DNA of 64,000 nucleotides, taken from NCBI GenBank assembly GCA_022710715.1, contig JAKLGJ010000003.1, forward strand, positions 358,558 through 422,557, in the 5' to 3' direction. Below, piece by piece: positions 6,839 to 60,102 of this stretch. This DNA comes from Candidatus Omnitrophota bacterium. GTDB taxonomy: Bacteria; Omnitrophota; Gorgyraeia; Gygaellales; Profunditerraquicolaceae. The notes below the pieces were generated by a model. That model ran no database searches. It worked only from the letters and a program-made list of their open reading frames with translations, and had not been told where the DNA came from. Position numbers and translations under genes: made by a program. The stretch's first letter is position 1; each line of letters opens with the position of its first letter.

Positions 6839-7213
6839 TTACTTCTTTTTCAAAGCCCGATCGATCATGGCTTTCAATTCCGCATTATCAAACGGCTTGG
6901 TAAGATATCCGGCGTAACCGGGAATATTCTTTATCCGCTCCACCATCTCGCTGTCGGCGAAAGCGGTAAGAAAAATCACCGGTCGATACGTACCTGCGCT
7001 CAACTGCGTCGCCGTATCCACCCCATCCAGAGAGCCCTTGAGCCTGATATCCATCAGCAATACATCCGGCTGCTCCCGGGCAACATACTCAAGCGCTTCT
7101 TCTCCGCTGGCAACCACTCCCGCATCAAATTTCCATTGCTGCAGAGTATACTTAATGCTCAACGCCACAACGGGTTCATCTTCAACCACCAGTATTTTTC
7201 TCCCGGCACCCAT
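6839..7213 (-). CDS. Stand-alone response regulator receiver domain
   Basis: ILVVEDEP ... VLLMDIRLKG ... LTKP. 124 aa with no output domain. It sits 10 nt downstream of the HK gene at 7224. Confidence 0.8.
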   Translation of the reverse strand: MGAGRKILVVEDEPVVALSIKYTLQQWKFDAGVVASGEEALEYVAREQPDVLLMDIRLKGSLDGVDTATQLSAGTYRPVIFLTAFADSEMVERIKNIPGYAGYLTKPFDNAELKAMIDRALKKK

Positions 7214-13861: not shown

Positions 13862-15715
13862 CTACCATGCCAGGATCACCGCAGTCAGGTCATCGTACTG
13901 CGGCGCCGATCCCTGAAAACCGTTGAACTGCGCTTCCATGCCGCGCAGCACGGCGTCGCCGTCTTGACCGCGTAACGCGTAAAAAGTTTCTTTGAGCCGT
14001 TCGGTGCCGAACTCCTGCTGTTTCCCGTTGCGGCCTTCTGTCCAACCGTCGGTATACATGAACAGCCTGTCCCCCGGCATAACCTGTCGCCTTACGGTAG
14101 TATAGGCACAGCCGGGCATCAACCCCAGCGGAGCTGCCGAAGCCTGGCATAATTCTTCCAGCCGGTCAGCGGCGCCCGTGGTATACAGCAGCGCCGGGTG
14201 GCCGGCGCACGCGCCTTCCCAGAAACCTTCGCGCCCATGCACGATCAGGTATTGCCCGGTGACAAATCGTCCCTGGAGCAACGCCACCAACTGATCGTTC
14301 AACCGGGAGAGGACCTGCGCAGGATCGCGGGAATCTTGGGCCAGGACCCGCAGCAGGGAGATCGTCTGGGCCATGATCAACGCCGCCGGCACTCCCTTAC
14401 CGCTGACATCGCCGATGAACACCCCGTAAGTCGATTCATCCAGCCGGATCACATCGTATAAATCGCCTCCCACGAATTTTGCGGGTTTGAGGAACGTGCG
14501 CAGCTGCGCCGCCCCGATCTGCCGCAGGTCCGCAGGCAGAAAACTGCGCTGGATGGAAGCGGCGATCTCCAGCTCCTTCTCCAGAATTCGCCTTTTCTGC
14601 GTTTCTTCCAGGAATTTCAACAGCAAACCCGAGACGTACACTGCCGCGATACCGGCAAGGGGCGTAAACAGATCGATGAAGATGCCCCGCCCAGAAAAAA
14701 GCCCCCAGGCAGCGCCGGTAAACAACGCCGCCAGTCCGATGCAGAGCAAACCCGCCTGCACCGGCGCCGCGATCAAACATATCCACAGCGCAGCCAGGAA
14801 TACGGCGCCGGCAATCAACGCTCTGACGCCCGGACCGGCCCGTTTGACAAATGCCTGGCGCAGAATAGTATCGCAGATGCTCGCCTGCGCGCCGACCATG
14901 GGATACACCGGCTCCAGCGGCGTGCCGCGAAAATCGGAAGTTCCGGTGGCAGTCAGCCCCACAAAACAGATTTTATCCTTGAATACGTTCAGATCGAGGG
15001 CGGCAGGTTGATTATTTTGACGGGCGACATAGGCTTGAAGCACATCGCGATAGGAATAATGTTTGAATGTCTCTTTCCATCGACCGGGGAAATTCACCCA
15101 GAAGGCTCCCCTGGCATCCACCGGCGCGGGGATCTGCGCGGGCGGTTTTCCCAGAAACCCGGCAGCAGCCGCTAATCCCAGAGAAGGCCAGAGAACATCC
15201 GCCTGGCGGACAAAAAGCGGAACTCTGCGCACTTTGCTGTCGGCATCGACAAAGATGTTGATCTGCCCGATCCCGGCGACAACCGGTTCAAGCGGCGCCG
15301 CCACCGCAGACAATGTTCCAGTGGCCGCGGGAAGACCGGCCCCCTCCCGGAGCGAAAATGCGACCGGCAGGATCACCCTGCCGGATTTAGACAATGCGTC
15401 TATCAACAAAAAATCGTTTTTGCCGGGTTCGCTGAAAAGGATATCAAAAACGATAAGCCTGGCTTTGCTGCCGGATAAGATCTGGATCAAGCTCGCATGA
15501 AACGTCCGGGGCAACGGCCAGCGCCCCAGTTCTTTCAACGTGGAGTCATCGATTTCGATAATCGCGATTTCCGGACTGACTGCCTGCCTGGGCCGGGAAC
15601 GCATCAGCCAGTCATAACCGATCATCTCCTGTTTTTCAAAAACCCCGGTCACCGCCGCAGCGCCGATGATAAGAACGCCGGCAGCCGCAACCGACCACAG
15701 CCAGGCGCGCTTCAC
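13862..15715 (-). CDS. CHASE2 extracytoplasmic sensor fused to a SpoIIE/PP2C serine phosphatase (RsbU-like)
   Basis: Signal/TM start, then a roughly 270-aa CHASE2 region including the conserved CFVGLTATGTSDFRGTPL..YPMVG block. Three TM helices follow, then a PP2C domain (EIAASIQRSFLP ... GGDLYDV ... GDVSGKGVPAAL ... YTDG). Confidence 0.8.
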   Translation of the reverse strand: MKRAWLWSVAAAGVLIIGAAAVTGVFEKQEMIGYDWLMRSRPRQAVSPEIAIIEIDDSTLKELGRWPLPRTFHASLIQILSGSKARLIVFDILFSEPGKNDFLLIDALSKSGRVILPVAFSLREGAGLPAATGTLSAVAAPLEPVVAGIGQINIFVDADSKVRRVPLFVRQADVLWPSLGLAAAAGFLGKPPAQIPAPVDARGAFWVNFPGRWKETFKHYSYRDVLQAYVARQNNQPAALDLNVFKDKICFVGLTATGTSDFRGTPLEPVYPMVGAQASICDTILRQAFVKRAGPGVRALIAGAVFLAALWICLIAAPVQAGLLCIGLAALFTGAAWGLFSGRGIFIDLFTPLAGIAAVYVSGLLLKFLEETQKRRILEKELEIAASIQRSFLPADLRQIGAAQLRTFLKPAKFVGGDLYDVIRLDESTYGVFIGDVSGKGVPAALIMAQTISLLRVLAQDSRDPAQVLSRLNDQLVALLQGRFVTGQYLIVHGREGFWEGACAGHPALLYTTGAADRLEELCQASAAPLGLMPGCAYTTVRRQVMPGDRLFMYTDGWTEGRNGKQQEFGTERLKETFYALRGQDGDAVLRGMEAQFNGFQGSAPQYDDLTAVILAW

Positions 15716-21120: not shown

Positions 21121-24100
21121 TTAGTTTCCTGCATTCTCTTTCTGCTTCTCGTCAAAGGCCTGGAAGAACTCCAGCAGGTCATTGTGTCCGACGAGCTGCA
21201 ACTGACCGTCTTTGAGCTCATAGGCGTCGGCACCGACCGAGAACTGGTCGAATGCGCCCATGTCCGTTGAAGTAAGCGGATGGTAGAAATACACCGATCC
21301 GATGGTAGAACTGAACTGATAGGTATCCAGATCAGCCACATTCGTCACTACCGGCTCATAAGCCATAATATCGCCGACAGGAGCGATAAACTCTTCCTCC
21401 TCCTCGACCGGCTCGGGTTCAGGAATGACCGGCTCTTCTTCATCGGGAATGTCGTTGAAATAAACGATGCCGGGAGCGGCATACACGGTAATAGCGTCCG
21501 GCGTGGTCTGCTCACGAACGCTTCCGGTCAACGCCGCGCTGACGCCTTCGATCTCGCCGTATGATATCAGGTACAGAGCCCCTTCGCCGGTAATGAGCAC
21601 GTCGAGCGGATTGTCCGTGGTGCCGATGGAGCTTTCGGAATAAATGATCTCATAATCCGGATATTCGCCGGTATACGAATAGCTGCCGCCATAGATATAC
21701 ACGGGACCGGCGCTGGTAATATGCGCTCCTTCGATATCGCCGGCAATGATCGATCCTCCGGCGATCAGGTACAGCCCGGACGCCGCGCCGTTAATCCCGG
21801 CGTTAAGAATGATATCCCCGGCAGCGTAAAGAGTCTCCAGGTTATAGTATGCAGCAAGGCCGGTTTCAGGAGTTTCTACGGCGATATCCCCTGCGGTGGA
21901 ACGAATGCTGATCCCGTCAAGCCCGTCGTCGTCGCTGTACAGATACGCGCCGAACGCGGGTTCCTCTGCGTCCCCGCAGAGAATGATTTCGCCGCTAAAG
22001 ACGATGTCGCCGGCCGATTGAAGCGAGAAATATTCTGCGGTCAGCGCAGGCATCCCGTCGCCGGTATCGCTGTACAGGCTGCCGTAGCCGTTAAGGTTTT
22101 CATCCGCGTGCAAAACGATCTCCTGCGCCTCCAGGTTACTGTACAGGTACAGATCGCCCGCGGAATACAGATAAATATATTCGGTTCTCGGCTCGAGATC
22201 GTAAACGGTCAGGGTTTCTTCCAGGGTGGAGAAAATTGAGATGGATAACGGTTCCGCATCTTCAACCGGCGTATACAGCTCTAACGTCGCGCTTGCCTCA
22301 TCCAGCGTCAGATAGAACGATCCATCCGCGCCTTCGCTGACGTAGAAATCATTGGCCCCCTGGAAGGTGTGGCGGAAACCGACCAATTCGAGATACTCGC
22401 CGGCAAAGCGCAGCTGGCCTGATCCATCCTGATCGCTGTCGGCAATGGCAGTGATGGAATCACCCATCAGGCTGTTATACGAAATCAAATCTCCCTGCGC
22501 CTGCAGGCTAAGACCGCCGAAGGTTTCAAACGGGATCTGCGCGTTTTCTGCTATGGCTTCGGAGCGCACCGGGAAATCATAACCGTCCACATCGATCTCG
22601 ATATCTCCCCCGGCGACCACGCTTACCGCTCCCGCCTGGGCTGTGGCTGACGCCGCAAGAGCTACTGCGCCCTGGCCGGTGGCCTGCGCCATTGAATACA
22701 CCTGGGATGCGCTTAACACGCTGAAATCTCCGCCTGCAGAAATCTCCAGCGGACCGCTGACAGCCGCAGCCGTATCCATGGCGTAGGCGTACGCCGTAGA
22801 ATCCAGCCCGGAAACCAGGTCGATAATGAAGCTGCCGACAGCCGAAACCAGGATCTCGCCCGCAGTGGCATCGGCGGTGTCGCTGGCCGGCACGTCCCCG
22901 CCGACATAAGAAGTACCTGCGCTGGCCAGGGTATACACGTGAGCGCTGTTAAAATTAATAGACCCGTTGGTGAACAATCCCATATCTCCGGAAACCGCCG
23001 TTGCTACCGATCCGCCCATGGCTGAAGCCGAAGAATAAACCGAAGATTCGCCGGCGATGGAAATCCCGCTCTCCTCGCTGAAAGAACCGGCGTCCAGGAC
23101 TACTTCGCCGCTGGTCGCTGCCGCAGCGCCCTCGCCCCAGGAAAGCGCGCTGGCCGCGGAATAAATGCTGCTGATGTTGTCCATCCCGGAATCAAGGTAA
23201 ATGCCCATTGCCAGGACGCCTACGTCGCCGGAGGTTGCGCCGGCATCTCCGGAAGCCTCGGCAACAGCCGAGGAATAAAGGCTGCCGGCGATCCCGACCG
23301 TGCCCTCTTCGGCGAACAAAGTCACGTCGCCGGAGAACGCTTCCGCGGAACCGTTGCCATAAGCCGTAGCGCTGGAATTGATGGTTTGATCGAGCTCGAT
23401 AGCGCCGGTCAGAGCGGTCACATCCACGTCGCCGGACCGGGCTGTCGCCTGGTTGAAAGCGTCTGCGGACGCCGAGGTGTACGCTTCTGCGCCGTTAAAG
23501 AGCTCCACGCTGCCGGCTTCGATAAGGATATCGCCGGACTCGGCGGTCGAATTATAGGAAACATCCGCGATAGCGCGGGTATTGGGATCAACGCCGTCGG
23601 AACTCAATGTCCCCGCGGCAATCAGGCTGATGTCGCCGGAATAGGCTACTGCTTCGTCTCCCTCTCCGGTTGAGGCTTCTGCCAGGGATGAGAGGAATCC
23701 TTCGTACAGCGAGATCGAGCCGCTGGCGCTTTCCAGGCTCACGTCCGAAGCGTACGCGTATGCGTAAGCGTCGCCTTCGGCGGTTGCCCAGGAAGTGAAT
23801 GATGCGGTCGCCTCATATTCGGGATTGCCCTGGGCAGTGATCCCGTTGTAACCGTATACGCTCACGCTGCCGGCGTAAGCGTAGGCCTGCGGGTATTCGC
23901 CGCCGGAGGCATAGGCTTCGGCGCGGCTGTTGAGGTCCGGAGACCCGAGCAGGCTGAAAAGACCGTAGCAGGTAATATCGATATTCCCGGTAGAAGCGTA
24001 GGCGTATTCCCGGGCATAAGCAGCGGCATTGGACTGCGCCGGGGTATAGGTCAATTGCATATCGCCGCTGGAATACAAGGCAACGTCGCCTGCGGTCAGG

Positions 24101-27100
24101 CTCACCGAATCCGCTTCCACCACTTCGCCGTAGAGCGAAGCCTCGGAATAGATCGAAGCGCCGATGCCGTTCAATGCGCCGTAGGCCGTGATCCAGAGAT
24201 CGCCGGATTCAGCTTCCAGGGTACCGGTGCCGGCGACCGAAGCGATCGAATATACCGAAAATTCGGAAAGGGTATAATTGCCGTTGATCATCAGGTTCAG
24301 ATCGCCGGAATAAGCCTGGGCATCGCTTGCGGAAGCGATTGCCGAGGAATAGAATGCGCAGGTCTGGTCCACTGATCCGGCTTCGATGTTCACCGAACCG
24401 GAAGAAGCCCGGGCGTACTCGCTGCCCTCGGCTTGCGCGGACGAATAAATATCCTGATTGACGTCCAGGAAATTAGAAGCATCAATGGTTACGTTGCCCG
24501 CGGTGGCGTACGAATAGGTCCCGCCCAGGGCCTGGGCGTTGCTGTAAACGTAACATTCGTTCAGATAAACGTCGTAGCCGGCAAGATTGACGTTGCCCGC
24601 GGTCACGCTGGTGTTCAATGCGGGATATTCGGAAATGACTTCGGAATTGGCGTAATAGACCCGCAGGGTCTGCCCGGCATAGATCGTCACATCGCCGGTA
24701 ACAGCCTGAAGCAGGTTCGGGAAGGTTCCGTCGCCGCTGGAATAGGCTTCCGCCGTGGAAACAGCGGCGTTCAGGTTGACCGATCTATACCAGCTGTGCA
24801 CGTCGATATCGTCAGCGGTGGCATACGCCTCCCCTGCGTCCAAACGGACATCCGCGGAAGCGTTGGACTGCGCCGTGGAAGGTATCTCGATATCGCCGTC
24901 CTGGGAGGCTACGGTAATCCTGCCGGAGACCGATTCCGCTCTCTGGTAGGCGTAGGTCCGGGCCTCGGAATTGAGGTACTGTTCGGAAAGGGTGATATCT
25001 CCGCCGGCGTCGATGGTTATGTCTCCGGCCAGGCCGTAAGCCTGGGCAGCTTCTCCCTGCGCCGAGGTGTCCGCGTACACGTGTGAGCCGTTGGAAAGAG
25101 CGATCGCGCCGCCGGCGTCGATCATTACCGCCAGATACGACCATTCATAATTGTTGTAATCGTAATATTCTGCTCCCGCGTAGGCCTGGGACAACGATCC
25201 GGGCTCGTTGGGCATGCTGGTCTGGGAGTCGGAGGAAGAATACACGTCGGTCATGCTCAAGTCGATATTCCCGCTGTCCGCGGAAAGAATTACGCTCGAG
25301 GAATTGGCCAGGGCCCGGGAGCCGGCGGAGGCGTGCGCGTACGAGTAAACATCTGCGCCGTATCCTGATCCAACCGAAGATATCCCGGCATTGCCGGAAA
25401 GGGTAACCGAGCCGCTGGTGGCGATAGCCGTGGAACCGGACAGGCCGTTATACACATTCGCATCGGCCGAGGAAAAGATCTGAGAGCCTTCGATATTGTT
25501 CAACAGTCCGCCGGCGCTGACGCTCACATTACCGGAAGTCGCAGTTGCGGTTTCCGATCCCGACGCGCGGGCTTGAGAGGAAATGTTCGCCCAATCCAGG
25601 GAGATGTTGCCGCCGGCGATCAGGCTCACCGCTCCGGAAACAGCGGAATTGTCGTACGCCGGACCGGATCCGGATGCATACGAAGAAATGTTGACGCCGT
25701 AATTAAAGGTAATCGCGCCGCCGGCATCCAGGGTGACATCTCCGGAGACCGCATTCTGCACCGGCTCGCCTTGGCCGCCACCCACTGTCGAACTGATGCT
25801 CACCTGATTGTCAACCAGGATATCCCCGCCTGCGGACAGATAGATCGATCCGCCCGCAGCATCGGTGAAAACATCGTTGTGAACAGTAAGGCCGGCCATT
25901 GCCTGCACGATAATATTGCCGCCGGCGTTATACATGCCGTCCGCATATTCGTCGGGATGAACAATCTGCAGATCGCGGTCATTGGAGATATAGATATCGC
26001 CGGAGCCGAGGTTCTCCGCGGCGACAGCCTGCACGTTCAAAGCCGCATCGATGCCGCTGGCCGCGGAAAGCATCGCGGCGCCTGCTGAAACCCGGCCGGT
26101 TCCCGGCTGTATCAACGTCTGACTGTAGATCTCGAAACCGGAAAGCGCGCTGGCGTACACCCTCACATCGTCAATAGCGCCTTCAGTAAGACGCGACCTG
26201 GCGCCGAAACCGCCGATCCAGAAACTCGCGCCCGTATCGACCGTGCCTTCGGGAACCGCGAATTCGCTGCCGTACTTGACGTCATCGTTGAATATGTAGA
26301 GGCTGCCTTCCGTGCCGTCGCGCACCATGGATACCTGATACCAGTTATTGTCATTAATCGCTATGGCGCTGTTGTCCATATCGTTATTCACCCAGCTCTG
26401 CAGGGAACCGTTCAAGGTCTCCAGCGCGTAACCGGTGGTGTAGAGCGGGCTCAAAGAAGCGCCCAACAATCCCACATTCTTGTCGCGCAGCTGGGTTCCG
26501 CGATACCAGCACAACAGGGTAAACGGCTCCGCGCCGAAGCCGAAATCAGTGCCGATGTTGAAATAGTCGTTGATCCCGTCAAAATAGAGCGCCTGGCCAT
26601 ATATGCCTTCCGGAACGATATCCGGGGTACCGCTGGCGTAAGCGGAATAACCGTTGCCGCTGACGTCCTGGGCATAATAATAGGAATAATACTGGTCGAA
26701 ATTCCAGTAAGCGCGCAAACCGTATTCTTCCACTTCCAGGTTACGGCGGATAATCGCGCCGTTATCCGCCCTCAAATAGACCGTTGCCAAATCAGGAGCG
26801 ACGATATCGGCCAGGGTATTCAGGATGATCCCGTTCTGTCCCTGGGCCTCCAGATACACATCGCCTTCGGAAATGATGCCATACCGCACCCGTATATCCC
26901 CGGCAGCGTATATAGCCGTTTCGGTCTGTGCGGCATAATTCTCCGCTACCAGCACCACCAGGTCTTGGTCGTTATACAGATAAATGCCGCCATATCCTTC
27001 ATTATACGCTACCAGCTTATTGACGGAAATTGCCAGGCCTTCCTCTATATTATCACCGATACCGCCATATGCTTCCAGATAGAGCTCATCCGCTTCAATG

Positions 27101-28911
27101 CAAACCCCTTCATCGCCCTGCAATAATTGTCCGGAAGAAGTCAAAACCACCAGGCCGGGAGAATAGATCTCCTGGATATAAAGCGGCGCCGAATCCTGCT
27201 CGATCCAGATATCGCCTGCGGAAGATTCCGGGTTGATCGTAGCCCGGACATAGCCGACATTGGTCAATATGGGGTTGGCCATGGTTCCGATACCGGAACC
27301 GGCCCGCATATTAAGGAAAGCTGTCCCTGTTTCTGAAGTGGCGGAAATTACATATTCTCCGGCATTGTAAATCGCGCCAATGCCCGGATCATAGGTAGTG
27401 TCCCATTCATACCAGAAATATTCTTCGCCTTCGGAAAAACGCTCGTGATCGGCGTAAAGATTGAGGGTGGAATTGTAACCGAGGAAAATGTCGCCGGTGA
27501 TGGTGATATCTTGCCAGGCATCAACCGTGACTGTGGTGTATTCACCGATGGTACCGCTATACTCGTTGGTGGCAGGGTCTAATAATGCATTACCGGGGGT
27601 AAATCCCGGAGGCGCCCGGCCGTTTAAAATGCCGTAAAAGCCCAATTGGGCGAAAGCGTCTACCCGCGCGACGCCGCCGTTACCGGAAACCGCGCCTGCG
27701 GAAAAATCTATTACTGCGTTCTTATTCACGAAAGTGTTGCCGTTTTTGGAATCGACCAGGATCCGGCCGCCGTTCCCGGCCAAACCGACTGCCTGCGCTT
27801 CCGTAACGCTGTTTTCATCCAGAACCGTCAAGGTATCGCTGACAATACTGATCTCTCCGGCTGTGCCCTGCTCCAGAGCATTGGCGGAAATGATACCCTG
27901 CTGCAGAATTGTTGCGGCTTCCAGGGCTATTTTGCCGCCATCCGGGCTGGTCGCGCTCAAAGCATCGGCTACGATCCTGCCTTCCGGGGCATTGGTAATC
28001 CCGGCATCGCTTACCTTAATATGTACTTGTGCAGCTTCCAGGGTACCGCTGTTGACTACTGGCGCCCCTTCCGCTACCAGTTCGATCACCCCGTCCTTTT
28101 CCACCAGAGAGGTTACTTTCACCAAACCGGTGTTATTGATGGCGTAATCGAAAACGCGATTGAGCACTTTAGCGGTCAAAATAACTTTGCCGCCTTGAGC
28201 CAGGATGGTGCCGCTATTCTTGACCGCGGAATCGATCCTCCGGCCATCCGGTCCGAATAACTCTTCCTGCACAGCCTGATCGATCGCTACGGAAATGGCG
28301 TTGGAATCTTCCAGCGACAAAGTCATCTTTTCACCGGAAGCCAGGACCACGGTGCCCAGATCAGCCTGGATCACCATTCGGTTATCCACTGCGTGTCCCA
28401 GCAGACAGACATAACCGCCGGCCTGCGCGGTGATCGTGCCCTGATTGATGATGTATCCGGCTTTACCGGCTTTGCTGAAAACGTAATTGCCTTTCAGGAA
28501 ATCTTCATTGGAAATGTTCAAGGTCGAAGCGACCAATCCGGCAACATCAACCTGCGAACCCGGTCCGAAAACAATCCCGTTGGGGTTGATCAGGAATACT
28601 TTTCCATTGGCGCTCAATGAACCCAGAATGCTGGAAGGATCACCGCCAACCACGCGGTTCAGCGCTACCGCGCTGGCAGAAGGCTGCGCGAAACGCACTG
28701 CTTCCTGCGCGGCAATATTGAAACTGTTGTAATCCACAATGAGTTTATCGGAAGGGGTAGTGACGGTCAGGGAATCGGCTTGAGAACGATCAAAGGTTGC
28801 GCTGCCGGCAACCACATTCTCGCCTTCAGGCAAGGCATAAACAAAAGAACAGCAACTTAAAAGGATGCTGGTTGCTGCTATCAGTATTCTTACATGGGTT
28901 TGTTTCGGCAT
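21121..28911 (-). CDS. Giant two-partner-secretion exoprotein (TpsA/filamentous-haemagglutinin-like, 2596 aa) with an N-terminal TPS domain, an internal LamG/concanavalin-like domain, and a long Tyr/Ala/Ser/Gly-rich beta-helical repeat region
   Basis: Signal peptide, then a TPS domain with ALNRV....NPNGIVFG (aa ~30-300). LamG-like block YGQALYFDGINDYFNIG...CWYRG...WYQVSMVRDG..SLYIFND...FWIGG...IDDVRVYASALS (aa ~745-930). It is followed by about 1500 aa of degenerate ~38-aa repeats (consensus ~[SA]GD[VI].[LV].A.G.I.L....YSSA.A.A). The C-terminus has an acidic linker (DEEEPVIPEPEPVEEEEEF) and a ~100-aa tail domain. Encoded immediately downstream of the tpsB gene. Confidence 0.8.
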   Translation of the reverse strand: MPKQTHVRILIAATSILLSCCSFVYALPEGENVVAGSATFDRSQADSLTVTTPSDKLIVDYNSFNIAAQEAVRFAQPSASAVALNRVVGGDPSSILGSLSANGKVFLINPNGIVFGPGSQVDVAGLVASTLNISNEDFLKGNYVFSKAGKAGYIINQGTITAQAGGYVCLLGHAVDNRMVIQADLGTVVLASGEKMTLSLEDSNAISVAIDQAVQEELFGPDGRRIDSAVKNSGTILAQGGKVILTAKVLNRVFDYAINNTGLVKVTSLVEKDGVIELVAEGAPVVNSGTLEAAQVHIKVSDAGITNAPEGRIVADALSATSPDGGKIALEAATILQQGIISANALEQGTAGEISIVSDTLTVLDENSVTEAQAVGLAGNGGRILVDSKNGNTFVNKNAVIDFSAGAVSGNGGVARVDAFAQLGFYGILNGRAPPGFTPGNALLDPATNEYSGTIGEYTTVTVDAWQDITITGDIFLGYNSTLNLYADHERFSEGEEYFWYEWDTTYDPGIGAIYNAGEYVISATSETGTAFLNMRAGSGIGTMANPILTNVGYVRATINPESSAGDIWIEQDSAPLYIQEIYSPGLVVLTSSGQLLQGDEGVCIEADELYLEAYGGIGDNIEEGLAISVNKLVAYNEGYGGIYLYNDQDLVVLVAENYAAQTETAIYAAGDIRVRYGIISEGDVYLEAQGQNGIILNTLADIVAPDLATVYLRADNGAIIRRNLEVEEYGLRAYWNFDQYYSYYYAQDVSGNGYSAYASGTPDIVPEGIYGQALYFDGINDYFNIGTDFGFGAEPFTLLCWYRGTQLRDKNVGLLGASLSPLYTTGYALETLNGSLQSWVNNDMDNSAIAINDNNWYQVSMVRDGTEGSLYIFNDDVKYGSEFAVPEGTVDTGASFWIGGFGARSRLTEGAIDDVRVYASALSGFEIYSQTLIQPGTGRVSAGAAMLSAASGIDAALNVQAVAAENLGSGDIYISNDRDLQIVHPDEYADGMYNAGGNIIVQAMAGLTVHNDVFTDAAGGSIYLSAGGDILVDNQVSISSTVGGGQGEPVQNAVSGDVTLDAGGAITFNYGVNISSYASGSGPAYDNSAVSGAVSLIAGGNISLDWANISSQARASGSETATATSGNVSVSAGGLLNNIEGSQIFSSADANVYNGLSGSTAIATSGSVTLSGNAGISSVGSGYGADVYSYAHASAGSRALANSSSVILSADSGNIDLSMTDVYSSSDSQTSMPNEPGSLSQAYAGAEYYDYNNYEWSYLAVMIDAGGAIALSNGSHVYADTSAQGEAAQAYGLAGDITIDAGGDITLSEQYLNSEARTYAYQRAESVSGRITVASQDGDIEIPSTAQSNASADVRLDAGEAYATADDIDVHSWYRSVNLNAAVSTAEAYSSGDGTFPNLLQAVTGDVTIYAGQTLRVYYANSEVISEYPALNTSVTAGNVNLAGYDVYLNECYVYSNAQALGGTYSYATAGNVTIDASNFLDVNQDIYSSAQAEGSEYARASSGSVNIEAGSVDQTCAFYSSAIASASDAQAYSGDLNLMINGNYTLSEFSVYSIASVAGTGTLEAESGDLWITAYGALNGIGASIYSEASLYGEVVEADSVSLTAGDVALYSSGDMQLTYTPAQSNAAAYAREYAYASTGNIDITCYGLFSLLGSPDLNSRAEAYASGGEYPQAYAYAGSVSVYGYNGITAQGNPEYEATASFTSWATAEGDAYAYAYASDVSLESASGSISLYEGFLSSLAEASTGEGDEAVAYSGDISLIAAGTLSSDGVDPNTRAIADVSYNSTAESGDILIEAGSVELFNGAEAYTSASADAFNQATARSGDVDVTALTGAIELDQTINSSATAYGNGSAEAFSGDVTLFAEEGTVGIAGSLYSSAVAEASGDAGATSGDVGVLAMGIYLDSGMDNISSIYSAASALSWGEGAAAATSGEVVLDAGSFSEESGISIAGESSVYSSASAMGGSVATAVSGDMGLFTNGSINFNSAHVYTLASAGTSYVGGDVPASDTADATAGEILVSAVGSFIIDLVSGLDSTAYAYAMDTAAAVSGPLEISAGGDFSVLSASQVYSMAQATGQGAVALAASATAQAGAVSVVAGGDIEIDVDGYDFPVRSEAIAENAQIPFETFGGLSLQAQGDLISYNSLMGDSITAIADSDQDGSGQLRFAGEYLELVGFRHTFQGANDFYVSEGADGSFYLTLDEASATLELYTPVEDAEPLSISIFSTLEETLTVYDLEPRTEYIYLYSAGDLYLYSNLEAQEIVLHADENLNGYGSLYSDTGDGMPALTAEYFSLQSAGDIVFSGEIILCGDAEEPAFGAYLYSDDDGLDGISIRSTAGDIAVETPETGLAAYYNLETLYAAGDIILNAGINGAASGLYLIAGGSIIAGDIEGAHITSAGPVYIYGGSYSYTGEYPDYEIIYSESSIGTTDNPLDVLITGEGALYLISYGEIEGVSAALTGSVREQTTPDAITVYAAPGIVYFNDIPDEEEPVIPEPEPVEEEEEFIAPVGDIMAYEPVVTNVADLDTYQFSSTIGSVYFYHPLTSTDMGAFDQFSVGADAYELKDGQLQLVGHNDLLEFFQAFDEKQKENAGN

Positions 28912-40368: not shown

Positions 40369-41976
40369 TTAGAAACCCAGGCGGCATCCTGAATTCTTCC
40401 CGTCCTCCGACTTGGGAAAATTTGCCGCAAAGCGCAGAGAGATGCGCAGATATTTCGGTGCGGGACTCGACCACACTCCGCCGCGGTTGCCCGCGCCTGC
40501 GCCGTCTTTACCCGGCCAGTTGGCGACATTGGCGAAACCGTCTTCGGCCAGAACTCCGTCGCCGTGCTGCCCGTCATAGATGCGGCCGAGCTGATGGCCG
40601 ATGGTAATGCAGCGTTCCCACACGTTGCCGGAAAGATTGTGTACGCCGTAAAAAGAAGCGCCGGCATTGACCCTGGGATCGATACCCGCGTGCTGACTGT
40701 TCTCGAAAAGCTCGCCTGAAACCGGGCCTTCGAATCCCGGATTATCCGGAACCGTCTTTTTACCTACATCAAAAGGAGCGATGCCGCCGCCGAAACAGGC
40801 GTTGACTGCGCCGGTCTGGGGAACCTTCTTCTCCACACCGGAACCGTCGGCGCCGTCAAAGGTCTGGGCGCGTCCTACCAGAGGCGAATCCATATCCACG
40901 CCCCAGGCCAGTTCGTTAACCAGCGGTTGCCCCGGGCCGCGGGCTGCTTTTTCATATTCCAGCTCGGTGATCGGCCTTAAACCCGCCCAGTCGCCGATCG
41001 CGGTAATATTCGACCAGGACATGAAATTGACCGCGCGGGCCGGAGCGTAGGTGTAGAATTTCACCGGCTCGGCGGTCCCATTGCCTTTTTTCGCCACCAC
41101 GATGGCGTTACGCAGATGCTCTTCTTCACTGTTGGTCTTGACATAGTAATTCTTGATCTCGTCGCCGCTGATATCCGATTCCACCATGCTTTGCTGCTGC
41201 TTACGGGTCAGCGTATTCACAAAATTGCAGAACTGCTGGGAAGTCAATTCGTATTTCATCACCCAGAACGGATCGAATCCCTTGGGGAATGTCTGCGGCA
41301 CGGTGAACGGAGTATCTTCGCGGCTGCGGGGATTGTCCTGATCGCAGAACAACGCGCCGTCGACTTTATCCACCAGGATCGGCTCTTCGGATTTGATCAG
41401 ATAAGAACCGTTATTAGGATAGGTATACAGGGTATTATCCGGGCCATCCGGTCCTTTGGGGTCGCCCACATAGAACTTGCTCCGGGGAATATAGACCATT
41501 TCAAAACCAAAAACCTTTATCGCGGTCTTTTTTACCTGATCCGCGGTCAATCCGTCTCTGGCAAAATCCCAGACCAGCACGGCATTGCGGGAAAACACGC
41601 TGCCGCTGCCTTTGGTCTTGAAAATGAATGCGCCGGTCTTCTCTGCCGGGATCCACAGCCCCAGATCCGGATTATCCCCCGGAGAGAACAACGCCGGCGC
41701 GGCGTCCACGCCGTTGAACGCTTTGCCGCTGGCGCTGGTCAAAGACACGTGCTTCCAGGTCCGGTCAGGCGCGAGGAACTTGGCAAACACCCAGACTCCG
41801 TCGCAATTCGTTTCGTTCTTCCAGGAATTATCCCAGGAGAGATTAAACTGCACCTTGGCGGCTTTGCGGTCGGTATTGATCTCGCTGACCATCCCGTTAT
41901 CGATCTTCAAATGGCTGGCAAAAGCCAGCATCGGAACCAAGAGCATCGCTGCAACCAACAACACCAGCTTTTTCAT
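40369..41976 (-). CDS. FGE-sulfatase/SUMF1 family protein, secreted paralog with a large N-terminal extension
   Basis: Signal peptide MKKLVLLVAAMLLVPMLAFA. C-terminal FGE-like motifs ELEYEKAARG, HNLSGNVWERC, NRGGVWSS. The N-terminal 300 aa match no recognised domain. Confidence 0.7.
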   Translation of the reverse strand: MKKLVLLVAAMLLVPMLAFASHLKIDNGMVSEINTDRKAAKVQFNLSWDNSWKNETNCDGVWVFAKFLAPDRTWKHVSLTSASGKAFNGVDAAPALFSPGDNPDLGLWIPAEKTGAFIFKTKGSGSVFSRNAVLVWDFARDGLTADQVKKTAIKVFGFEMVYIPRSKFYVGDPKGPDGPDNTLYTYPNNGSYLIKSEEPILVDKVDGALFCDQDNPRSREDTPFTVPQTFPKGFDPFWVMKYELTSQQFCNFVNTLTRKQQQSMVESDISGDEIKNYYVKTNSEEEHLRNAIVVAKKGNGTAEPVKFYTYAPARAVNFMSWSNITAIGDWAGLRPITELEYEKAARGPGQPLVNELAWGVDMDSPLVGRAQTFDGADGSGVEKKVPQTGAVNACFGGGIAPFDVGKKTVPDNPGFEGPVSGELFENSQHAGIDPRVNAGASFYGVHNLSGNVWERCITIGHQLGRIYDGQHGDGVLAEDGFANVANWPGKDGAGAGNRGGVWSSPAPKYLRISLRFAANFPKSEDGKNSGCRLGF

Positions 41977-41994
41977 ACCATCTCCTTTGTTATG

Positions 41995-42054
41995 GGGACG
42001 TTCCCCAAGGTACCACCCCTGGTTACAGGGGTGGTACCTTGGGGAACGTCCCCT
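41995..42054. repeat. Perfect 60-nt palindrome: 28-bp stem and 4-nt loop (GGGGACGTTCCCCAAGGTACCACCCCTG-gtta-CAGGGGTGGTACCTTGGGGAACGTCCCC)
   Basis: Read directly from the sequence. It lies in the 82-nt gap between the MFS stop (42059) and the FGE-sulfatase start (41976). A second copy of one arm occurs at 50979..51006. Confidence 0.9.
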
Positions 42055-42058: not shown

Positions 42059-43483
42059 TCAATGACCGGGAACTTTAACCGTTTTGTATTGCTCGAACCC
42101 GCCTTTGCGCGCGCTTTGCATCGCGCTCACCAGACTCCACACCGTAGCCACCCCCAATCCCGCGGCCAGGAAATTGAACTGCGACCTGAACACGTCCTGC
42201 CCGGGAAACGCGGAAGCCGCTTTCAAGATCACCGGTGACATAAACTGGCCCAGATAAATACCACAGCTGACCACAGCCATGGAGAAAGCCCGGGAAGTAT
42301 CACCGGCAATACGCGCCACGCGCAAAAGCAGCAGCGGCATCAATATCCCTGAACTGAACCCGATACACACCATCGGGATCAGAACCGCGATCAGAGAACC
42401 GGCCTGACCCAGCAAAGCATAACCGATGGCCATAGCCACAATGCCCACCACCGCGCAATACGGCCCCCACATGCGCAAAAGCATGGCCAGTATCACGCCG
42501 GAGAACACGCCGACCATGGTCATGGTCGACAGAAAGAACCCCGATATTCCCGGCCGGCCCAGGCGTTCCGTAGAAACCACCAGACCGTCAGGTATTCTCG
42601 TTACCACGAATTTTCTCGAGCGATCCTGGATCAACCAGGATTTCCCCGGCTCCTTGACCGCAAAAGAAGCCCGTTCAGAAATCATGATCCCGTTTTCTTT
42701 AAAGGACGTCCGCACCGACTCGGCAAGAGTTCCCGCAGCCAGGCTGGATTCCAATTCAGCCTTATCCTTGAAGAGCGGAGTAACGCTGGTGTACATTTTC
42801 TGCTGATTTTCGATAAACATCGCCAGATTGGTCGGCGCGGCATAGAATGCCACCATCATCAGAGCGCCCAGGAATGCGCACCAGTAGATCTGCCAGGGCA
42901 GAGTTGCCTTGGCCGGACCGCCGGTTTGTTTGACCGGAGGCTCGGGCAGCCAGAAGAATACCGTAAACATGATCACCGCGGACAAGCCGTAAACGCCAAA
43001 AGCATACCGCCAGCTGAAACACGCCAGCCAGCCGGATAAAAGCAAAAATATCACCCCGCCGAAATGCGAAACCGATCCTGAAAGCCCCATCATCTTCGCG
43101 CGTTCGGCTTTCTCGTAAAAATCCGCGATCAGGCTGATAGACAAAGGAATGATCAATCCCACGCCGATGCCGAAGATGCCGCGGATGATCAACAGCTGGG
43201 TAATGGTGCGGGCCAGCCCCCCGCCTACCCCGCCCAGAAAATAGATGAGTAAGCCGACGAGCAAAATGGTTTTCTTCTTCATTCTGCCGGCGAGCCAGCC
43301 GCCCAGCAGACTGAAAGGAATGATCAATAAAGACGGCAAGGTCAGCACCAGCTTGATCATGGTGATATCCGCAGCGGGAAAAGCCTGGCGGATCTTAGCC
43401 AGCGCCGGAGAAATGGCCGCGGAAGCCATGACCGTCAATAACGAGATCGAGAGTATGCTTATTCTTACCAGCAGATTGTTCAT
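42059..43483 (-). CDS. MFS-type transporter (12 TM) with an inserted soluble loop domain
   Basis: N-terminal and C-terminal 6-TM bundles. GRMKKK occurs after TM2. A ~90-aa hydrophilic insertion (KAELESSLAAGTLAES...) lies between the halves. Confidence 0.65.
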   Translation of the reverse strand: MNNLLVRISILSISLLTVMASAAISPALAKIRQAFPAADITMIKLVLTLPSLLIIPFSLLGGWLAGRMKKKTILLVGLLIYFLGGVGGGLARTITQLLIIRGIFGIGVGLIIPLSISLIADFYEKAERAKMMGLSGSVSHFGGVIFLLLSGWLACFSWRYAFGVYGLSAVIMFTVFFWLPEPPVKQTGGPAKATLPWQIYWCAFLGALMMVAFYAAPTNLAMFIENQQKMYTSVTPLFKDKAELESSLAAGTLAESVRTSFKENGIMISERASFAVKEPGKSWLIQDRSRKFVVTRIPDGLVVSTERLGRPGISGFFLSTMTMVGVFSGVILAMLLRMWGPYCAVVGIVAMAIGYALLGQAGSLIAVLIPMVCIGFSSGILMPLLLLRVARIAGDTSRAFSMAVVSCGIYLGQFMSPVILKAASAFPGQDVFRSQFNFLAAGLGVATVWSLVSAMQSARKGGFEQYKTVKVPGH

Positions 43484-46112: not shown

Positions 46113-46144
46113 GTCATTGCGAGCCCCGCAGGGGCGAAGCAATC
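46113..46144. repeat. Left flanking nested-hairpin repeat of the GIY-YIG cassette (gtcattgcgag-ccccgcagggg-cgaagcaatc)
   Basis: The unit is itself a hairpin: outer arms attgc/gcaat and inner arms gcccc/ggggc. It is an imperfect inverted repeat of 46438..46475. Confidence 0.7.
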
Positions 46145-46431
46145 TACAATTTCTTATACAAATCCTCGAATTGCGGATTCATCTGGGCGATCAAATCAAG
46201 TTTCTTTTGCCTCGATCCACCCTTGATCTGCTTTTCCCGGGTAATTGCCTCGTAGATGTCATCAAATACTTCATAAAAAACCAGTTTGGTCACGTTATAC
46301 TTTTTAGTAAAACCTTCAAATTTTTTCTCTTTGTGTTCATATACCCTTTTTTTCAAGTCGCTGGTTACGCCGGTATAGAATACCTTATTATTCCAGTTAG
46401 TCAGGATATACACACAACCTTGCTTTTCCAT
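46144..46431 (-). CDS. Small GIY-YIG nuclease-domain protein (COG2827-like)
   Basis: 95 aa. GIY-YIG core CVYILTNWNNKVFYTGVTSDLKKRVYEH ... with a conserved Arg and Glu (EAITREKQIKG). Confidence 0.8.
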   Translation of the reverse strand: MEKQGCVYILTNWNNKVFYTGVTSDLKKRVYEHKEKKFEGFTKKYNVTKLVFYEVFDDIYEAITREKQIKGGSRQKKLDLIAQMNPQFEDLYKKL

Positions 46432-50389: not shown

Positions 50390-50956
50390 TCAGGCTTTGT
50401 CGATCATCTCGATTATTTTCCTGGCGAATACGTTGCAATGGCCGCCGCTGCGGGCAGTCACCAGGTCGCCGTCAACCACCACATCCTCATTCACGTACAC
50501 CGCGCCCATATTCTTAGCGTCGCCGAGCAGGTTGTTGTGCACCACCAGCTTCCGGCCGCGCACCAGTTCCGGCGCCGACGCCACCAGCCACAGGCCGTGG
50601 CAGATAATGCCTTTGATGATCTTCTTTTCGGTAAAAGCGCGCTTCAGGAATTCCGTAGCCGGAGAAAGTTTGGCGATATCTTCGGTGTAACGCAACCGGT
50701 CCGCGACCATGCCGGCCGGAACAATGATGGCGGAATAACTCTTCAGGGTAACGTCGTCCATATTCTCGAAACTTTCGCGAACCTCCATCGGCGCGCGGTA
50801 TTCATGCCCCTGGAACGTCAATGAAGCGCAGCCCCAGAGCCGGGTCAGGAAATGCACGTCCAGGCCTTCTTCGGCAAAACGGAATTTATAATACCAGATT
50901 TCAGGCTCGTAATAATCGCCTTCCAGCAGAATGCCGATTTTCTTGCCTTTTAACAT
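50390..50956 (-). CDS. PfpI/DJ-1 family intracellular protease/amidase
   Basis: KKIGILLEGDYYE ... nucleophile elbow IKGIICHGLWLV ... EDVVVDGDLVTARSGG. 188 aa, with GAGGAGG 5 nt upstream. Confidence 0.8.
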   Translation of the reverse strand: MLKGKKIGILLEGDYYEPEIWYYKFRFAEEGLDVHFLTRLWGCASLTFQGHEYRAPMEVRESFENMDDVTLKSYSAIIVPAGMVADRLRYTEDIAKLSPATEFLKRAFTEKKIIKGIICHGLWLVASAPELVRGRKLVVHNNLLGDAKNMGAVYVNEDVVVDGDLVTARSGGHCNVFARKIIEMIDKA

Positions 50957-50973: not shown

Positions 50974-52521
50974 CTACGCAGGGGTGGTACCTTTGGGAAC
51001 GTCCCCTTTGTATTTGACTGCAAGCATGGTGATGTCGTCGGATTGCGCCGCGCCCCTGGCAAAGGAATACACCGCGTCGCGCACTTTGCCGATCATCGTC
51101 TTCATATCGCTGCCGTTGAGCCCGGAGAGCGTGGCCTTCAACCTGGCGTCGGTGAATTGCTGGTGCTCGGGGTCCATCGCTTCGGTAACTCCGTCGGTAT
51201 ACAGCACGATGGATTCACCCGGCCGCATCACTATGCCGTTATTGCCGCACCTGGTCTGTTCCATCACCCCCATGACCATCCCCGCCGGCACTTTGATAAA
51301 ATCAGCCGCCCCGCCGACCTTGATCAATAGCGGCGGGTTGTGCCCGGCGTTGCAGTATTGCAGATTCCCGTTCTCCATATTCAGGATGGCGCAGAACACG
51401 GTGACGAACAGACAGCTCTGGTTATCGGGATAGAGAATATTATTGACCCTGGACAGTATCTCGTTGGTAGGCAACCCTTCCTTGGCCTTGGTCTTGATCA
51501 ACGTCTTGGTGATGGTCATGAACAGCGCGGCGGGCACGCCCTTGCCGGAAACGTCGCCGATAACGAAACACAGGCGTTTGTCGTCCACAAAAAAGAAATC
51601 GTAAAAATCGCCGCCGACCTCTTTAGCCGGGTCCATCATCGCGAAAATCTCGAATTCCTTACGCTGCGGGAACACCTGCGGCAGCATGCTCGCCTGGATC
51701 TCCTGGGCGATGCGCAATTCGCTTTCGATGCGCTCCCGTGACGCGGTTTCCGCTTTGAGATTCTCGATGAAACGTTTGATCGACATCTCGATCAGATCGA
51801 GAGCCATCGCCGGATCATGGGCGAAGAACTTGATCACCTCGTCCCGGCCCATGGTATAGGCTTCCAGGTCCTCCTCGCATACCGCGGAAGCGGTGCGCTG
51901 CTTGAAGGGAGAGAATATCCCCATCTCGCCGATAACTTCCCCCTCCGGGATAACCTTGTTGATCTCGACCAGCCGGATCGCGCCTTTCTTGATATAGAAC
52001 ATCCGGTCAGCTTTGTCTCCGGCCTTGAAAAGCGTATCGCCCTTCTTGAAACGCTCCAGTTTCATGAACGTGATCGGCCAGCGGCAACCGGCAGCTTCCC
52101 CGGGAACGATCGGGGTACTCCCGTTCTTCTTGATCAAGGTCAGAACATTGCGGTCGTTCTCCCTCTTATAACTGACCTGATCCATGAGCTTGCGTATCAT
52201 GTAAATACCCAGGCCGCCGATCTTGCGTTCTTCCATCGGCGCGGTTATATCCGGCGCCGCCAGAGCAAGCGGATCGAACGGGATCCCGGAATCGCTGATC
52301 TGTATCTCCAAAGCGTCCGGTTTATTATCAAAAGCGATCTCCAGTTCGCCGTCTTTGTCCGGATAGGCGTAATTGATCACGTTCACCAGGGCTTCTTCGC
52401 AGGCGAGCTGAATCTTGTTGGCGGCTTCGTTATCGAAACCCTGCCTGGAGGCAGCGCCCCGGATAAAGGAGAACATGGCTTCCAAATGCTGGAGTTTTGC
52501 CGGTAGGACTAATCGTTCCAT
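50974..52521 (-). CDS. Three-domain signalling enzyme: N-terminal RsbW-like anti-sigma-factor-type Ser/Thr kinase (HATPase), central cyclic-nucleotide-binding domain, C-terminal SpoIIE/PP2C phosphatase
   Basis: aa 1-135 has the N-box CEEALVNVINYAYP, the G1 box SDSGIPFDP and the G2 box GGLGIYMIRKLMD. aa 145-265 is a cNMP-binding domain (FKKGDTLFKAGDKADRMFYIKKGAIRL..GEVIGEMGIF...RTASAVC). aa 270-505 is a PP2C domain (IAQEIQASMLP ... GGDFYDF ... GDVSGKGVPAALFM ... LYTDGVTEA). The last 10 codons are encoded by a copy of the 42-kb palindrome arm. Confidence 0.8.
   Translation of the reverse strand: MERLVLPAKLQHLEAMFSFIRGAASRQGFDNEAANKIQLACEEALVNVINYAYPDKDGELEIAFDNKPDALEIQISDSGIPFDPLALAAPDITAPMEERKIGGLGIYMIRKLMDQVSYKRENDRNVLTLIKKNGSTPIVPGEAAGCRWPITFMKLERFKKGDTLFKAGDKADRMFYIKKGAIRLVEINKVIPEGEVIGEMGIFSPFKQRTASAVCEEDLEAYTMGRDEVIKFFAHDPAMALDLIEMSIKRFIENLKAETASRERIESELRIAQEIQASMLPQVFPQRKEFEIFAMMDPAKEVGGDFYDFFFVDDKRLCFVIGDVSGKGVPAALFMTITKTLIKTKAKEGLPTNEILSRVNNILYPDNQSCLFVTVFCAILNMENGNLQYCNAGHNPPLLIKVGGAADFIKVPAGMVMGVMEQTRCGNNGIVMRPGESIVLYTDGVTEAMDPEHQQFTDARLKATLSGLNGSDMKTMIGKVRDAVYSFARGAAQSDDITMLAVKYKGDVPKGTTPA
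50979..51006. repeat. Second copy of one arm of the 60-nt palindrome, 27/28 identical (CAGGGGTGGTACCTTTGGGAACGTCCCC)
   Basis: Read directly from the sequence. It overlaps the 3' end, including the stop codon region, of the fused kinase/cNMP/PP2C gene. It sits 22 nt upstream of the PfpI start. Confidence 0.6.
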
Positions 52522-58191: not shown

Positions 58192-60102
58192 TTAATTGAA
58201 CCGTAAAATGAGCATGGTGATATCGTCCGACTGCGGCGCGTTACGGACAAAAACGCTTACTTCTTCCCGCACGGTACGGATCATCTCCACCAGATACTTG
58301 TCCCGGCCCAGGCGGGAAAGCGCATCCTGCAACCGTTGTTCGGAGAACAACCGCTTTTCCGGATCCATAGCTTCAGTGACACCGTCCGTATACAGAAAGA
58401 TCGTGTCGCCGTGCCCCAGGTTAAGTTTCCGGGAAGTAAATTTAAAATTCTGCATCGGGCCCAGGACAAACCCTTTATCCACGGTCAAGAACTCGAACGG
58501 CCGGCCGTCGAGACTGACCAGCGGCGGATTATGCCCGGCGTTGGCGAACTCCACCTCCCCGGTTGCGGTATCGAGTATCCCGCAAAAAACCGTGGCAAAC
58601 ATGGTCGCGGTATTGTCCAGAGCCAGAATATTGTTCACCTTGTAGAGTATCTCGTGCGCCGCCAACCCCTGCAACGCTTCGTTCTTGAGCAACGTTTTGG
58701 TGATCATCATGAACAGCGCCGCCGGCACGCCTTTGCCGGAAACATCGCCCATCACGAAGAACAAGCGTTTTTCATCGATCAGGCAGAAATCGTAGAAGTC
58801 CCCTCCGACTTCCTTGGCCGGCTCCATCATCGCGTAAATATCGAATTCCTTGCGGTCCGGAAAAGCCGGGAATATCCGCGGCAGGATGCCGGTCTGGATT
58901 TCGTGCGCGATCTTGAGCTCACTCTCAATGCGCTCTTTGGCGGCAGTGGTTTCGGTCAAGCGCTTGATGTACTCCTTGAGCGCGGACTGCATGTTCCCGA
59001 AAGCCCGGGATAACCTGCCCACTTCGTCCGCGGAATCAACCGCCGGCAGCTTGGCGTCGAAATTCCCCTCTCCGATACTGTGCGCTGCCCGCGAGATCAA
59101 ACGCAACGGTTTGGTGATGGAATGCGCCAGCAACGCGATCACCAGCACGAGAAAAATGATGCCGGCTCCGGCCATCGCCCCGGTCAGGGCGGTTTGCCGG
59201 CGGATATCTTCAAAGAGCTCATCCTGCGGGAACACCACTGCCAGCGTCCAGCCGGTAGAGGGCACCGGCGCGTAATACATCCAGCTTTTCTTGTTCCTGG
59301 CCAGGGAAGTGAACGGCACAAACCCGCTTTCCCCGCGGACCATCCGTCTGCCGATCTCGCGCAAAGCCGGATCGTTCCGGCTTTCGGCTACGCTGAAAAC
59401 AGTTTCATTCATGATCAATTCCTTCAACGGATGGGTAATGATCATGCCGTTGCGGGAAATAAGATACGCGTCGCCGGTTTTGAAGATCTTGACCGAAGAA
59501 ACGATATCCGTAAGCCATTGCAGGGAAATATCGGCATTGACGATACCCTTGAGCTTGCGCCCCTGCGCCGAAGCCTGGTAAAACGGGACCGAATAGCTGG
59601 CCATCAGCACATCGTCAAAATAAGGTTCGGTCCAGACCGCTCTGCCCAGTTCCCGGGGTATTTGATACCAGTCAAGAGTAAAGTAACGGTACGCTTCGGC
59701 GCCCAGATTGTACAGAACCAATCCGGACTTTTCCTTGGCGTAATAGGGACAGAAATAAAGCGATTTCGGGTCGAAGGCATACGGTTCAAAAGCTATCCCC
59801 ATACCGTAGAGCTCTTTATTATTGACCACCACCAGCTTGAGCAGCCTCTCGATACGTTCCTTGCTGACCGCGCCTTCCTCGAGATAATCCGCGACGGTAT
59901 CCGCGGTTTTTTTCACCGAAGCCAGTTCGATCTCGATCTTATTCACCGTGCGCAGGGCAAGATTCTCGGCGTTCTCCCGGATCTTGGCCATGATAATACC
60001 TTCGGAAAAACGGTAATTGAAACCGATGATCGCCAGCAGGATCACGACGCAGCAGCCGGACACATACAGAATGAATTTAACCGCGAGGCTTCTTATTTTC
60101 AT
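58192..60102 (-). CDS. dCache-like extracytoplasmic sensor - HAMP - SpoIIE/PP2C phosphatase (RsbU-like)
   Basis: N-terminal TM, then a ~270-aa periplasmic Cache-like domain and a second TM. HAMP region ITKPLRLISRAAHSIGEGNFD ... DEVGRLSRAFGNM. The PP2C domain has AHEIQTGILP, GGDFYDF, GDVSGKGVPAALFM and LYTDGVTEA. Confidence 0.8.
   Translation of the reverse strand: MKIRSLAVKFILYVSGCCVVILLAIIGFNYRFSEGIIMAKIRENAENLALRTVNKIEIELASVKKTADTVADYLEEGAVSKERIERLLKLVVVNNKELYGMGIAFEPYAFDPKSLYFCPYYAKEKSGLVLYNLGAEAYRYFTLDWYQIPRELGRAVWTEPYFDDVLMASYSVPFYQASAQGRKLKGIVNADISLQWLTDIVSSVKIFKTGDAYLISRNGMIITHPLKELIMNETVFSVAESRNDPALREIGRRMVRGESGFVPFTSLARNKKSWMYYAPVPSTGWTLAVVFPQDELFEDIRRQTALTGAMAGAGIIFLVLVIALLAHSITKPLRLISRAAHSIGEGNFDAKLPAVDSADEVGRLSRAFGNMQSALKEYIKRLTETTAAKERIESELKIAHEIQTGILPRIFPAFPDRKEFDIYAMMEPAKEVGGDFYDFCLIDEKRLFFVMGDVSGKGVPAALFMMITKTLLKNEALQGLAAHEILYKVNNILALDNTATMFATVFCGILDTATGEVEFANAGHNPPLVSLDGRPFEFLTVDKGFVLGPMQNFKFTSRKLNLGHGDTIFLYTDGVTEAMDPEKRLFSEQRLQDALSRLGRDKYLVEMIRTVREEVSVFVRNAPQSDDITMLILRFN

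Follow-up and report, generated by a model that had tools for sequence, protein, structure and literature searches.

The window, by which we mean the whole 64,000-nucleotide stretch of a Candidatus Omnitrophota contig that was analysed, carries in the short gap between genes for an MFS transporter and an FGE-sulfatase-domain protein a 60-nt palindrome (41994-42053), in which two 28-nt arms that are exact reverse complements of each other (100% complementarity) flank a 4-nt loop (Table 1). The MFS stop codon lies 5 nt upstream of this doublet and the FGE-sulfatase start 17 nt downstream, the Shine-Dalgarno sequence (AAGGAG) and ATG of the latter gene being situated just beyond the doublet and left free. 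One arm recurs, with a single mismatch (C to A) and in the opposite orientation on the + strand, at the end of a PP2C-type gene, where it is read in frame as ...KYK-GDVPKGTTP-A-stop, that is, ...KYKGDVPKGTTPA* of the 515-aa protein; all four genes around the copies are on the - strand. The initial annotation had set the palindrome one base too high, at 41995-42054, but was right in describing a perfect 60-nt structure with a 28-bp stem between the MFS stop and the FGE-sulfatase start, and an arm that recurs with 27/28 identity at 50979..51006, where it encodes GDVPKGTTPA and the stop of the kinase/cNMP/PP2C gene 22 nt before the PfpI start.

Table 1. Copies of the repeat in the window and the genes that adjoin them
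Feature	Position	Strand	Remarks
Repeat unit, doublet arm 1	41994..42021	+	GGGGACGTTCCCCAAGGTACCACCCCTG, 5' to 3' on the + strand; exact match
Loop GTTA, 4 nt, between the arms	42022..42025	.	Seen in the sequence
Repeat unit, doublet arm 2	42026..42053	-	Perfect copy; convergent with arm 1, 3' ends facing
Single repeat unit	50979..51006	-	27/28; sense orientation, within the last codons of the PP2C-type gene
MFS transporter gene	42059..43483	-	Pfam MFS_1, E = 4.6e-34
FGE-sulfatase-domain gene	40369..41976	-	Pfam FGE-sulfatase
HATPase_c_2/cNMP_binding/SpoIIE (PP2C) gene, 515 aa	50974..52521	-	Contains 8 inserted codons, derived from the repeat, ahead of its final codon
DJ-1/PfpI gene	50390..50956	-	Starts 22 nt past the single unit

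Two trivial explanations that had been entertained at the outset, a chance palindrome combined with a chance match and contamination with vector or adaptor sequence, did not survive closer inspection. When the window was shuffled, matches at <=3 mismatches were found in 0/100 shuffles, and the repeat proved to be dispersed over 90 loci elsewhere. As DNA, the 60-mer folds with -38.5 kcal/mol (z = -12.6), a value equalled by 0/200 shuffles, and the RNA of the doublet with its flanks reaches -72 kcal/mol (z = -8.2). An MFS protein identical to that of the window was read on 13 contigs from JGI, NCBI and Logan; the whole palindrome occupies the same place in three of the four such loci that were fetched, and the fourth contig stops inside the palindrome, so that an assembly or vector artefact is ruled out by recurrence on contigs from other sources. 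Within the window we found no copies or half-copies beyond the three in searches at a Hamming distance of <=9, with 12-mers and with 13-mer half sites. The two arms are identical, the single unit deviates from them at one position and all three copies share a genome-specific 3' extension ending in ...ACCCCTG; these features of the sequence therefore suggest that the copies arose by recent copying inside this genome.

The doublet was correctly described as neither a canonical terminator nor a CRISPR repeat. It has no U-tract, the stem being followed on the transcribed strand by AUAACAAAGGAG, and a terminator scan does not call it; the window contains no regularly spaced direct repeats of the unit, only the inverted pair and one distant copy. 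Rfam matches to the palindrome region were at chance level, far below gathering scores.

Comparison with other genomes and with metagenomes defined the repeat as a 26-nt core, GGGGACGTTCCCCAAGGTACCACCC[C/T], a conserved block of exactly this length with sharp edges and unrelated flanks; counted from this core, the spacer of the window doublet is 8 nt (TGGTTACA). A scan with the exact 26-mer yielded four genome loci in three metagenome-assembled genomes (MAGs), one labelled Candidatus Omnitrophota and two "uncultured Eubacteriales" (L001-L003), and a 24-mer scan yielded 86 metagenome loci from many samples, on contigs with GC contents of 0.40 to 0.62; viral contigs gave no match. The proposal of a dispersed REP/MITE-like element is thus upheld by 90 loci. 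The core of arm 1 is identical to copies in L001-L004 and in many of L005-L090. At <=6 mismatches, these loci and the window together hold 189 copies, or 186 when the duplicate locus L078 is set aside, and variation is concentrated in the middle of the unit, where AAGGTACC alternates with AAAGTGCC, GAAGTGCC, GCGGAGCC and AAAGGGAC. Neighbouring copies are arranged convergently in 63 pairs, in tandem in 20 and divergently in none; the gaps between them span 4-201 nt, apart from a single gap of 394 nt and a further group clustered at 684-694 nt. Copies are located mostly just downstream of genes, and their 5' flank is A/T-rich (AT, TA, TT or AA in 120/186). In many doublets the two arms are different variants, and several contigs have compact doublets whose loop resembles TCAA. 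The individual unit has little structure of its own: its hairpin, with a 5-bp stem and -5 kcal/mol, is no better than those of shuffled sequences (z = -0.8 to -1.1), compensatory changes or covariation within the unit were not found, and a GTAG tag is absent from it. Full units are immediately preceded by partial copies of the 5' half (GGGGACGTTCCCCA...) in L018 (~670-720), L051 (~1106-1156) and L087 (~6885-6935), and in L044 (9515-9583 and 11002-11050) the unit is embedded in a longer repeated block composed of the unit and TTAACGATAGCGCCTTGAGG.

The history of the window copies can be read from two syntenic relatives, whose PP2C proteins are about 68-69% identical to that of the window and which keep the order STAS, PP2C, PfpI ... 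Lcl_C, PfpI, MFS, FGE; more broadly, the PP2C protein is 60-70% identical to Omnitrophota-labelled proteins with conserved gene order, and its named homologues are all from Omnitrophica or Omnitrophota, apart from one partial Acidobacteriota-labelled protein at 51% identity. No copy of the repeat is present in the 21.5 kb available from the two relatives. Their MFS-to-FGE gap measures 12 nt and 39 nt, as against 82 nt (22 + 60) here, and their PP2C proteins end in KYKGA* and RYKGKPKGV*, PfpI following after 1-3 nt, whereas the protein encoded in the window ends in KYKG[DVPKGTTP]A*, a net lengthening by 8 codons or 24 nt that keeps the frame; other PP2C orthologues stop 0-6 residues past the conserved Y[KN]G. 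Because the relatives are without the repeat at both sites, both window copies are lineage-specific insertions. Target-site duplication is not seen in the sequences bordering the window doublet (TGAAA | ... | ATAAC).

The PP2C gene is not alone in having acquired residues from the repeat. RmuC in L004 and L025 and a hydrolase-like ORF in L065 all end in GDVPQGTTP, the tail of a pseudouridine synthase in L103 reads GTFPEVPP..., and the TAG stop of several genes consists of TA and the first G of the unit. As none of the six frames of the unit is closed by a stop codon, such insertions into coding tails are tolerated; for the same reason a naive census of overlaps with ORFs is noisy, since the unit prolongs spurious ORFs, and only cases backed by Pfam or lying in called genes were used. 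The suggestion that the element has been exapted as a coding 3' end therefore needs to be divided: the repeat does supply C-terminal residues to several unrelated genes, in different frames, but "exapted" overstates what we see as tolerance of in-frame insertions.

The 684-694 nt cluster of gaps comprises eight distinct loci, each with an ORF of 195-197 aa between two inverted copies of the repeat. The ORF matches Pfam Y1_Tnp above the cut-off (E = 8e-12; domain at residues 14-124), and scores 69.8 bits against NCBIfam REP_Tyr_transpos, under the cut-off of 80. Among 36 transposase sequences H60 and Y120 are invariant; H62, invariant among the first six, is conserved in at least 90% of the 36. 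The histidine motif takes the form [NT]H[LIVF]H, an FQ motif is also seen, and the tyrosine motif is YIE[RK]NPLRA, with I121, E122, N124 and A128 invariant and P125 and R127 conserved in at least 90%. As for the residues taken as specific to RAYTs (REP-associated tyrosine transposases), an N-terminal Thr and NP(L/V)(R/K)xG beside the tyrosine (PMC2817692), the final G after NPLRA occurs in two of six sequences and Thr18 in five of six. A search of the PDB with the single sequence gave no match and a profile search gave weak matches only, so the structure was predicted and folds were compared. The AF2 model (pLDDT 92.4), which includes a helical C-terminal part of ~70 residues, matches best the E. 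coli TnpA-REP bound to REP (4er8_A; E = 7e-9, TM 0.65/0.76, 159 columns), with the IS608 and ISDra2 TnpA structures ranking next (TMq about 0.45); the fold is thus closer to TnpA-REP than to IS200/IS605 TnpA, although by sequence alone the link is weak. Pfam detected no C-terminal HTH-like domain in the 195-aa protein.

The association between enzyme and repeat also holds in reverse, in that repeat variants in a + ... - arrangement flank all three homologues that had been selected solely for their protein similarity. The transposase family amounts to 3,378 clusters at E <= 1e-20, and among the matches listed every one with a named organism is from Omnitrophica or Omnitrophota. The search for an associated Y1 gene of the IS200/TnpA-REP kind, proposed at the outset, was hence rewarded in related genomes, where such a gene is flanked by the repeat in 8+3 loci, but not in this genome over the 79.5 kb covered: the window, queried by tblastn with the transposase, and 15.4 kb of added flank, examined through its Pfam gene calls, revealed no Y1 gene. 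At the transposase loci a third unit is often found in the same orientation, 350-750 nt beyond the right-hand copy (L004 1732-2131, L025 7115-7515, L072 3641-4434, L083 1704-2497). The flanks of these loci are conserved between related contigs, with RmuC upstream in both L004 and L025, which hints that the whole transposase locus is vertically inherited.

We suggest, with a probability of roughly 85%, that the palindrome is a tail-to-tail doublet, and the third copy a singlet, of a repeat that flanks a RAYT-type family of Y1 HUH transposases; the transposase-repeat family has so far been found mostly in Candidatus Omnitrophota. By analogy with E. coli TnpA-REP and with IS608 and ISDra2, whose biochemistry is the source of the scheme of single-strand binding and tyrosine cleavage (PMC3479197, PMC6006769), the transposase would bind the unit as single-stranded DNA, recognising one of its two strands, for example at a replication fork, cleave it through the catalytic Y120, with H60 and H62 holding the metal, and then carry out strand transfer, and new copies would be seeded, with no duplication of the target site, where the DNA is A/T-rich directly beyond stop codons. 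GC skew on the + strand is negative throughout the window, and the GGGGACG... strand of the singlet therefore lies on the G-rich strand, i.e., as lagging-strand template sequence; as a single data point, this placement would fit a model of single-strand transposition. In the transcript of the MFS and FGE-sulfatase genes, the doublet would form a very stable 28-bp RNA hairpin between the cistrons, leaving the downstream ribosome-binding site free, and like known REPs it may block 3'-exonucleases or attenuate read-through; the singlet would do no more than add 8 residues to the PP2C protein beyond its last domain. Mobilisation and RNA effects alike are inferred from the E. coli and Pseudomonas systems (PMC3479197, PMC3116915).

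Some of the evidence pulls the other way. The single unit has neither a convincing hairpin nor a GTAG tag. Spacers of doublets differ between loci and even within single contigs (e.g., L015), so that either the doublet or the single unit could be what moves. The density of the repeat, at three units in two sites in the 79.5 kb covered (the window plus flanks of 9.3 kb and 6.1 kb, or ~5% of the 1.62-Mb contig), is far below that of classical REPs. Since the window and its 15.4 kb of flank hold no Y1 transposase gene, the copies could be relics, and a possible, if doubtful, alternative is that a system of REP/RAYT-type origin has lost its transposase here and that its copies persist as neutral or mildly useful hairpins. 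The low copy density speaks for such fossils, and the lack of copies in 21.5 kb of the syntenic relatives indicates that loss or absence is common in the clade; however, identical arms, a singlet only 1/28 off and a common 3' extension point to recent copying or strong constraint, and the stretch searched for the gene represents only ~5% of the contig.

Explanations that dispense with this class of transposase fare less well. A site for a host protein, be it an operator or a recombination site bound by a regulator, an IHF-like or a XerC/D-like protein and conserved through that binding, is improbable: the near-invariance of the 26 nt could reflect an additional host function, yet no host-factor gene is consistently linked to the repeat, and insertions in coding tails in three frames argue against regulatory placement. 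The copies are not tied to particular operons, and the idea of a protein-binding or recombination site specific to this operon finds no support. Still less probable, and already contradicted as an account of the origin, is a local RNA element of the MFS-FGE operon, a terminator, attenuator or mRNA stabiliser unrelated to mobile DNA; a very stable RNA hairpin between co-directional genes is what such an element would look like, and known REPs do have effects of this kind (PMC3733652), but the same 26-mer is found in 90 unrelated contexts and around transposase genes, relatives lack the palindrome at the same junction, and the absent U-tract, the negative terminator scan and the chance-level Rfam matches offer no help. 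Inverted terminal copies with a variable interior are reminiscent of a MITE descended from an insertion sequence of the classical DDE-transposase kind, with its terminal inverted repeats and target-site duplication, the more so in L002 (2801-3246), where two perfect convergent units stand 394 nt apart without an ORF between them. This origin has hardly any likelihood, however, and is already contradicted by the enclosed gene, since the only one repeatedly found between copies encodes a Y1 HUH enzyme; moreover, single units are common and the window doublet is without target duplication. The interior of the L002 element has a long-range inverted repeat of its own and showed no ORF, transposase remnant or Rfam match; it may be non-coding cargo or a deletion derivative.

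Among known systems, the REP/RAYT systems or REPtrons resemble the RAYT-type arrangement proposed here in having a small Y1 HUH gene between two inverted copies of a short, dispersed extragenic repeat (PMC2817692), and the two share the conserved HUH and Tyr residues, the Y---NP form of the tyrosine motif and the top structural match, 4er8 (PMC3479197). In contrast to REPs, the Omnitrophota unit has neither the 5' GT[AG]G tag nor the form of an imperfect palindrome, its local density is low where REPs usually exceed 100 copies in the host genome (PMC2817692), the enzyme falls below the REP_Tyr_transpos cut-off, and the host belongs to Omnitrophota and not to Proteobacteria. The doublet looks like a REPIN in its layout (PMC3116915), with two inverted units and a short spacer that together give one long hairpin, singlets also being present. 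In Pseudomonas, however, the two arms and the spacer replicate together as one unit and reach hundreds of copies (PMC3116915), whereas spacers here differ (4-201 nt, one 394 nt) and 79.5 kb contain one doublet. Members of IS200/IS605 such as IS608 and ISDra2 have the same HUH/Tyr fold, a presumed single-strand mechanism without target duplication and insertion by a short specific or A/T-rich sequence; unlike them, the present system has Y---NP in place of Y---Q, ends that are inverted and not direct and no tnpB, and its structural match to them is weaker than that to 4er8.

Given a repeat without palindromic symmetry and with GGGG at its start, the closest description appears to be that of the TIRtrons and their TIRYT enzymes (PMC3733652), which correspond to TnpAY1 subclass 2.1 (PMC6006769) and to the Group 1 RAYTs of Bertels (PMC5581495). 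In TIRtrons, terminal inverted repeats that are not palindromic and begin with GGGG stand on either side of RAYT-like genes and form moderately abundant families, often as dimers (PMC3733652); a RAYT-like gene flanked by non-palindromic inverted repeats that are also dispersed is what we observe here. The assignment rests on motifs and not on a phylogeny, and the agreement is imperfect. The unit starts with GGGGACGT, which fits the GGGGWSAS consensus of that class at six of eight positions, positions 7 and 8 being near-invariant G and T. Subclass 2.1 is characterised by NH[VYF]H, W[EQ] or FQ, and YIELNP or Y[IV]HLNP (PMC6006769), and the protein motifs found here, among them FQ in place of WQ/WE, are nearest to this subclass without being exact, the tyrosine motif reading YIE[RK]NP as against YIELNP (PMC6006769 Table 1). 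The protein is also shorter (195-197 aa versus a median of 238), and no HTH-like tail was found with Pfam.

The palindrome is therefore no new type of signal; it adds a further example to a class of miniature mobile elements that is already known. No published link of Omnitrophota with RAYTs or REPs was found in the literature searched, and the present family would extend REP/RAYT-type systems to an uncultivated phylum for which that literature holds no earlier description. The 26-nt unit is near-invariant across transposases that are ~50% identical and across genomes of 40-62% GC, in contrast to the fast co-evolution of REPs and RAYTs in proteobacteria (PMC2817692), and this makes the family a useful case for asking what fixes a recognition sequence. 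A tentative reading, for which the odds are distinctly unfavourable, is that the unit represents an uncatalogued, non-palindromic and untagged type of REP belonging to a RAYT system of ancient origin that is passed on vertically across much of Omnitrophota and may have been domesticated; were this true, the signal would be held constant by more than transposase-repeat co-evolution, for example by a part that it plays for the host in replication, repair or RNA processing. The family offers a 26-nt sequence and an enzyme of 195 aa, both defined, for testing in vitro, and for annotators of Omnitrophota MAGs the repeat accounts for odd C-terminal tails (GDVP[QK]GTTP, GTFP[KE]VPP) as well as long perfect hairpins.

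Other features of the window deserve mention in their own right. A stand-alone gene for a GIY-YIG nuclease-domain protein of 95 aa (46144-46431, - strand; Pfam E = 5e-18) lies between the glyoxalase and Lcl_C genes and looks like another lineage-specific insertion, because the relatives L095 and L097 are without a gene there. A 20-nt inverted repeat (46932-46951/47098-47117), 95% complementary and with its arms 146 nt apart, is unrelated to the repeat studied here; it extends over the region where the glyoxalase gene starts and the gap that follows the TPP-enzyme gene. A 2,596-aa ORF (21121-28911, - strand) contains internal repeats of ~30-35 nt (families D3 and D4). Finally, SpoIIE/PP2C domains are encoded by three genes that differ in their sensor N-termini, at 13862-15715 (with CHASE2), 50974-52521 (with HATPase_c_2 and cNMP) and 58192-60102 (with dCache and HAMP); STAS genes lie nearby, two of the PP2C genes are 78% identical in DNA sequence over 239 nt, and the three sensor-PP2C genes with their STAS neighbours constitute a dense repertoire of partner-switching signalling.
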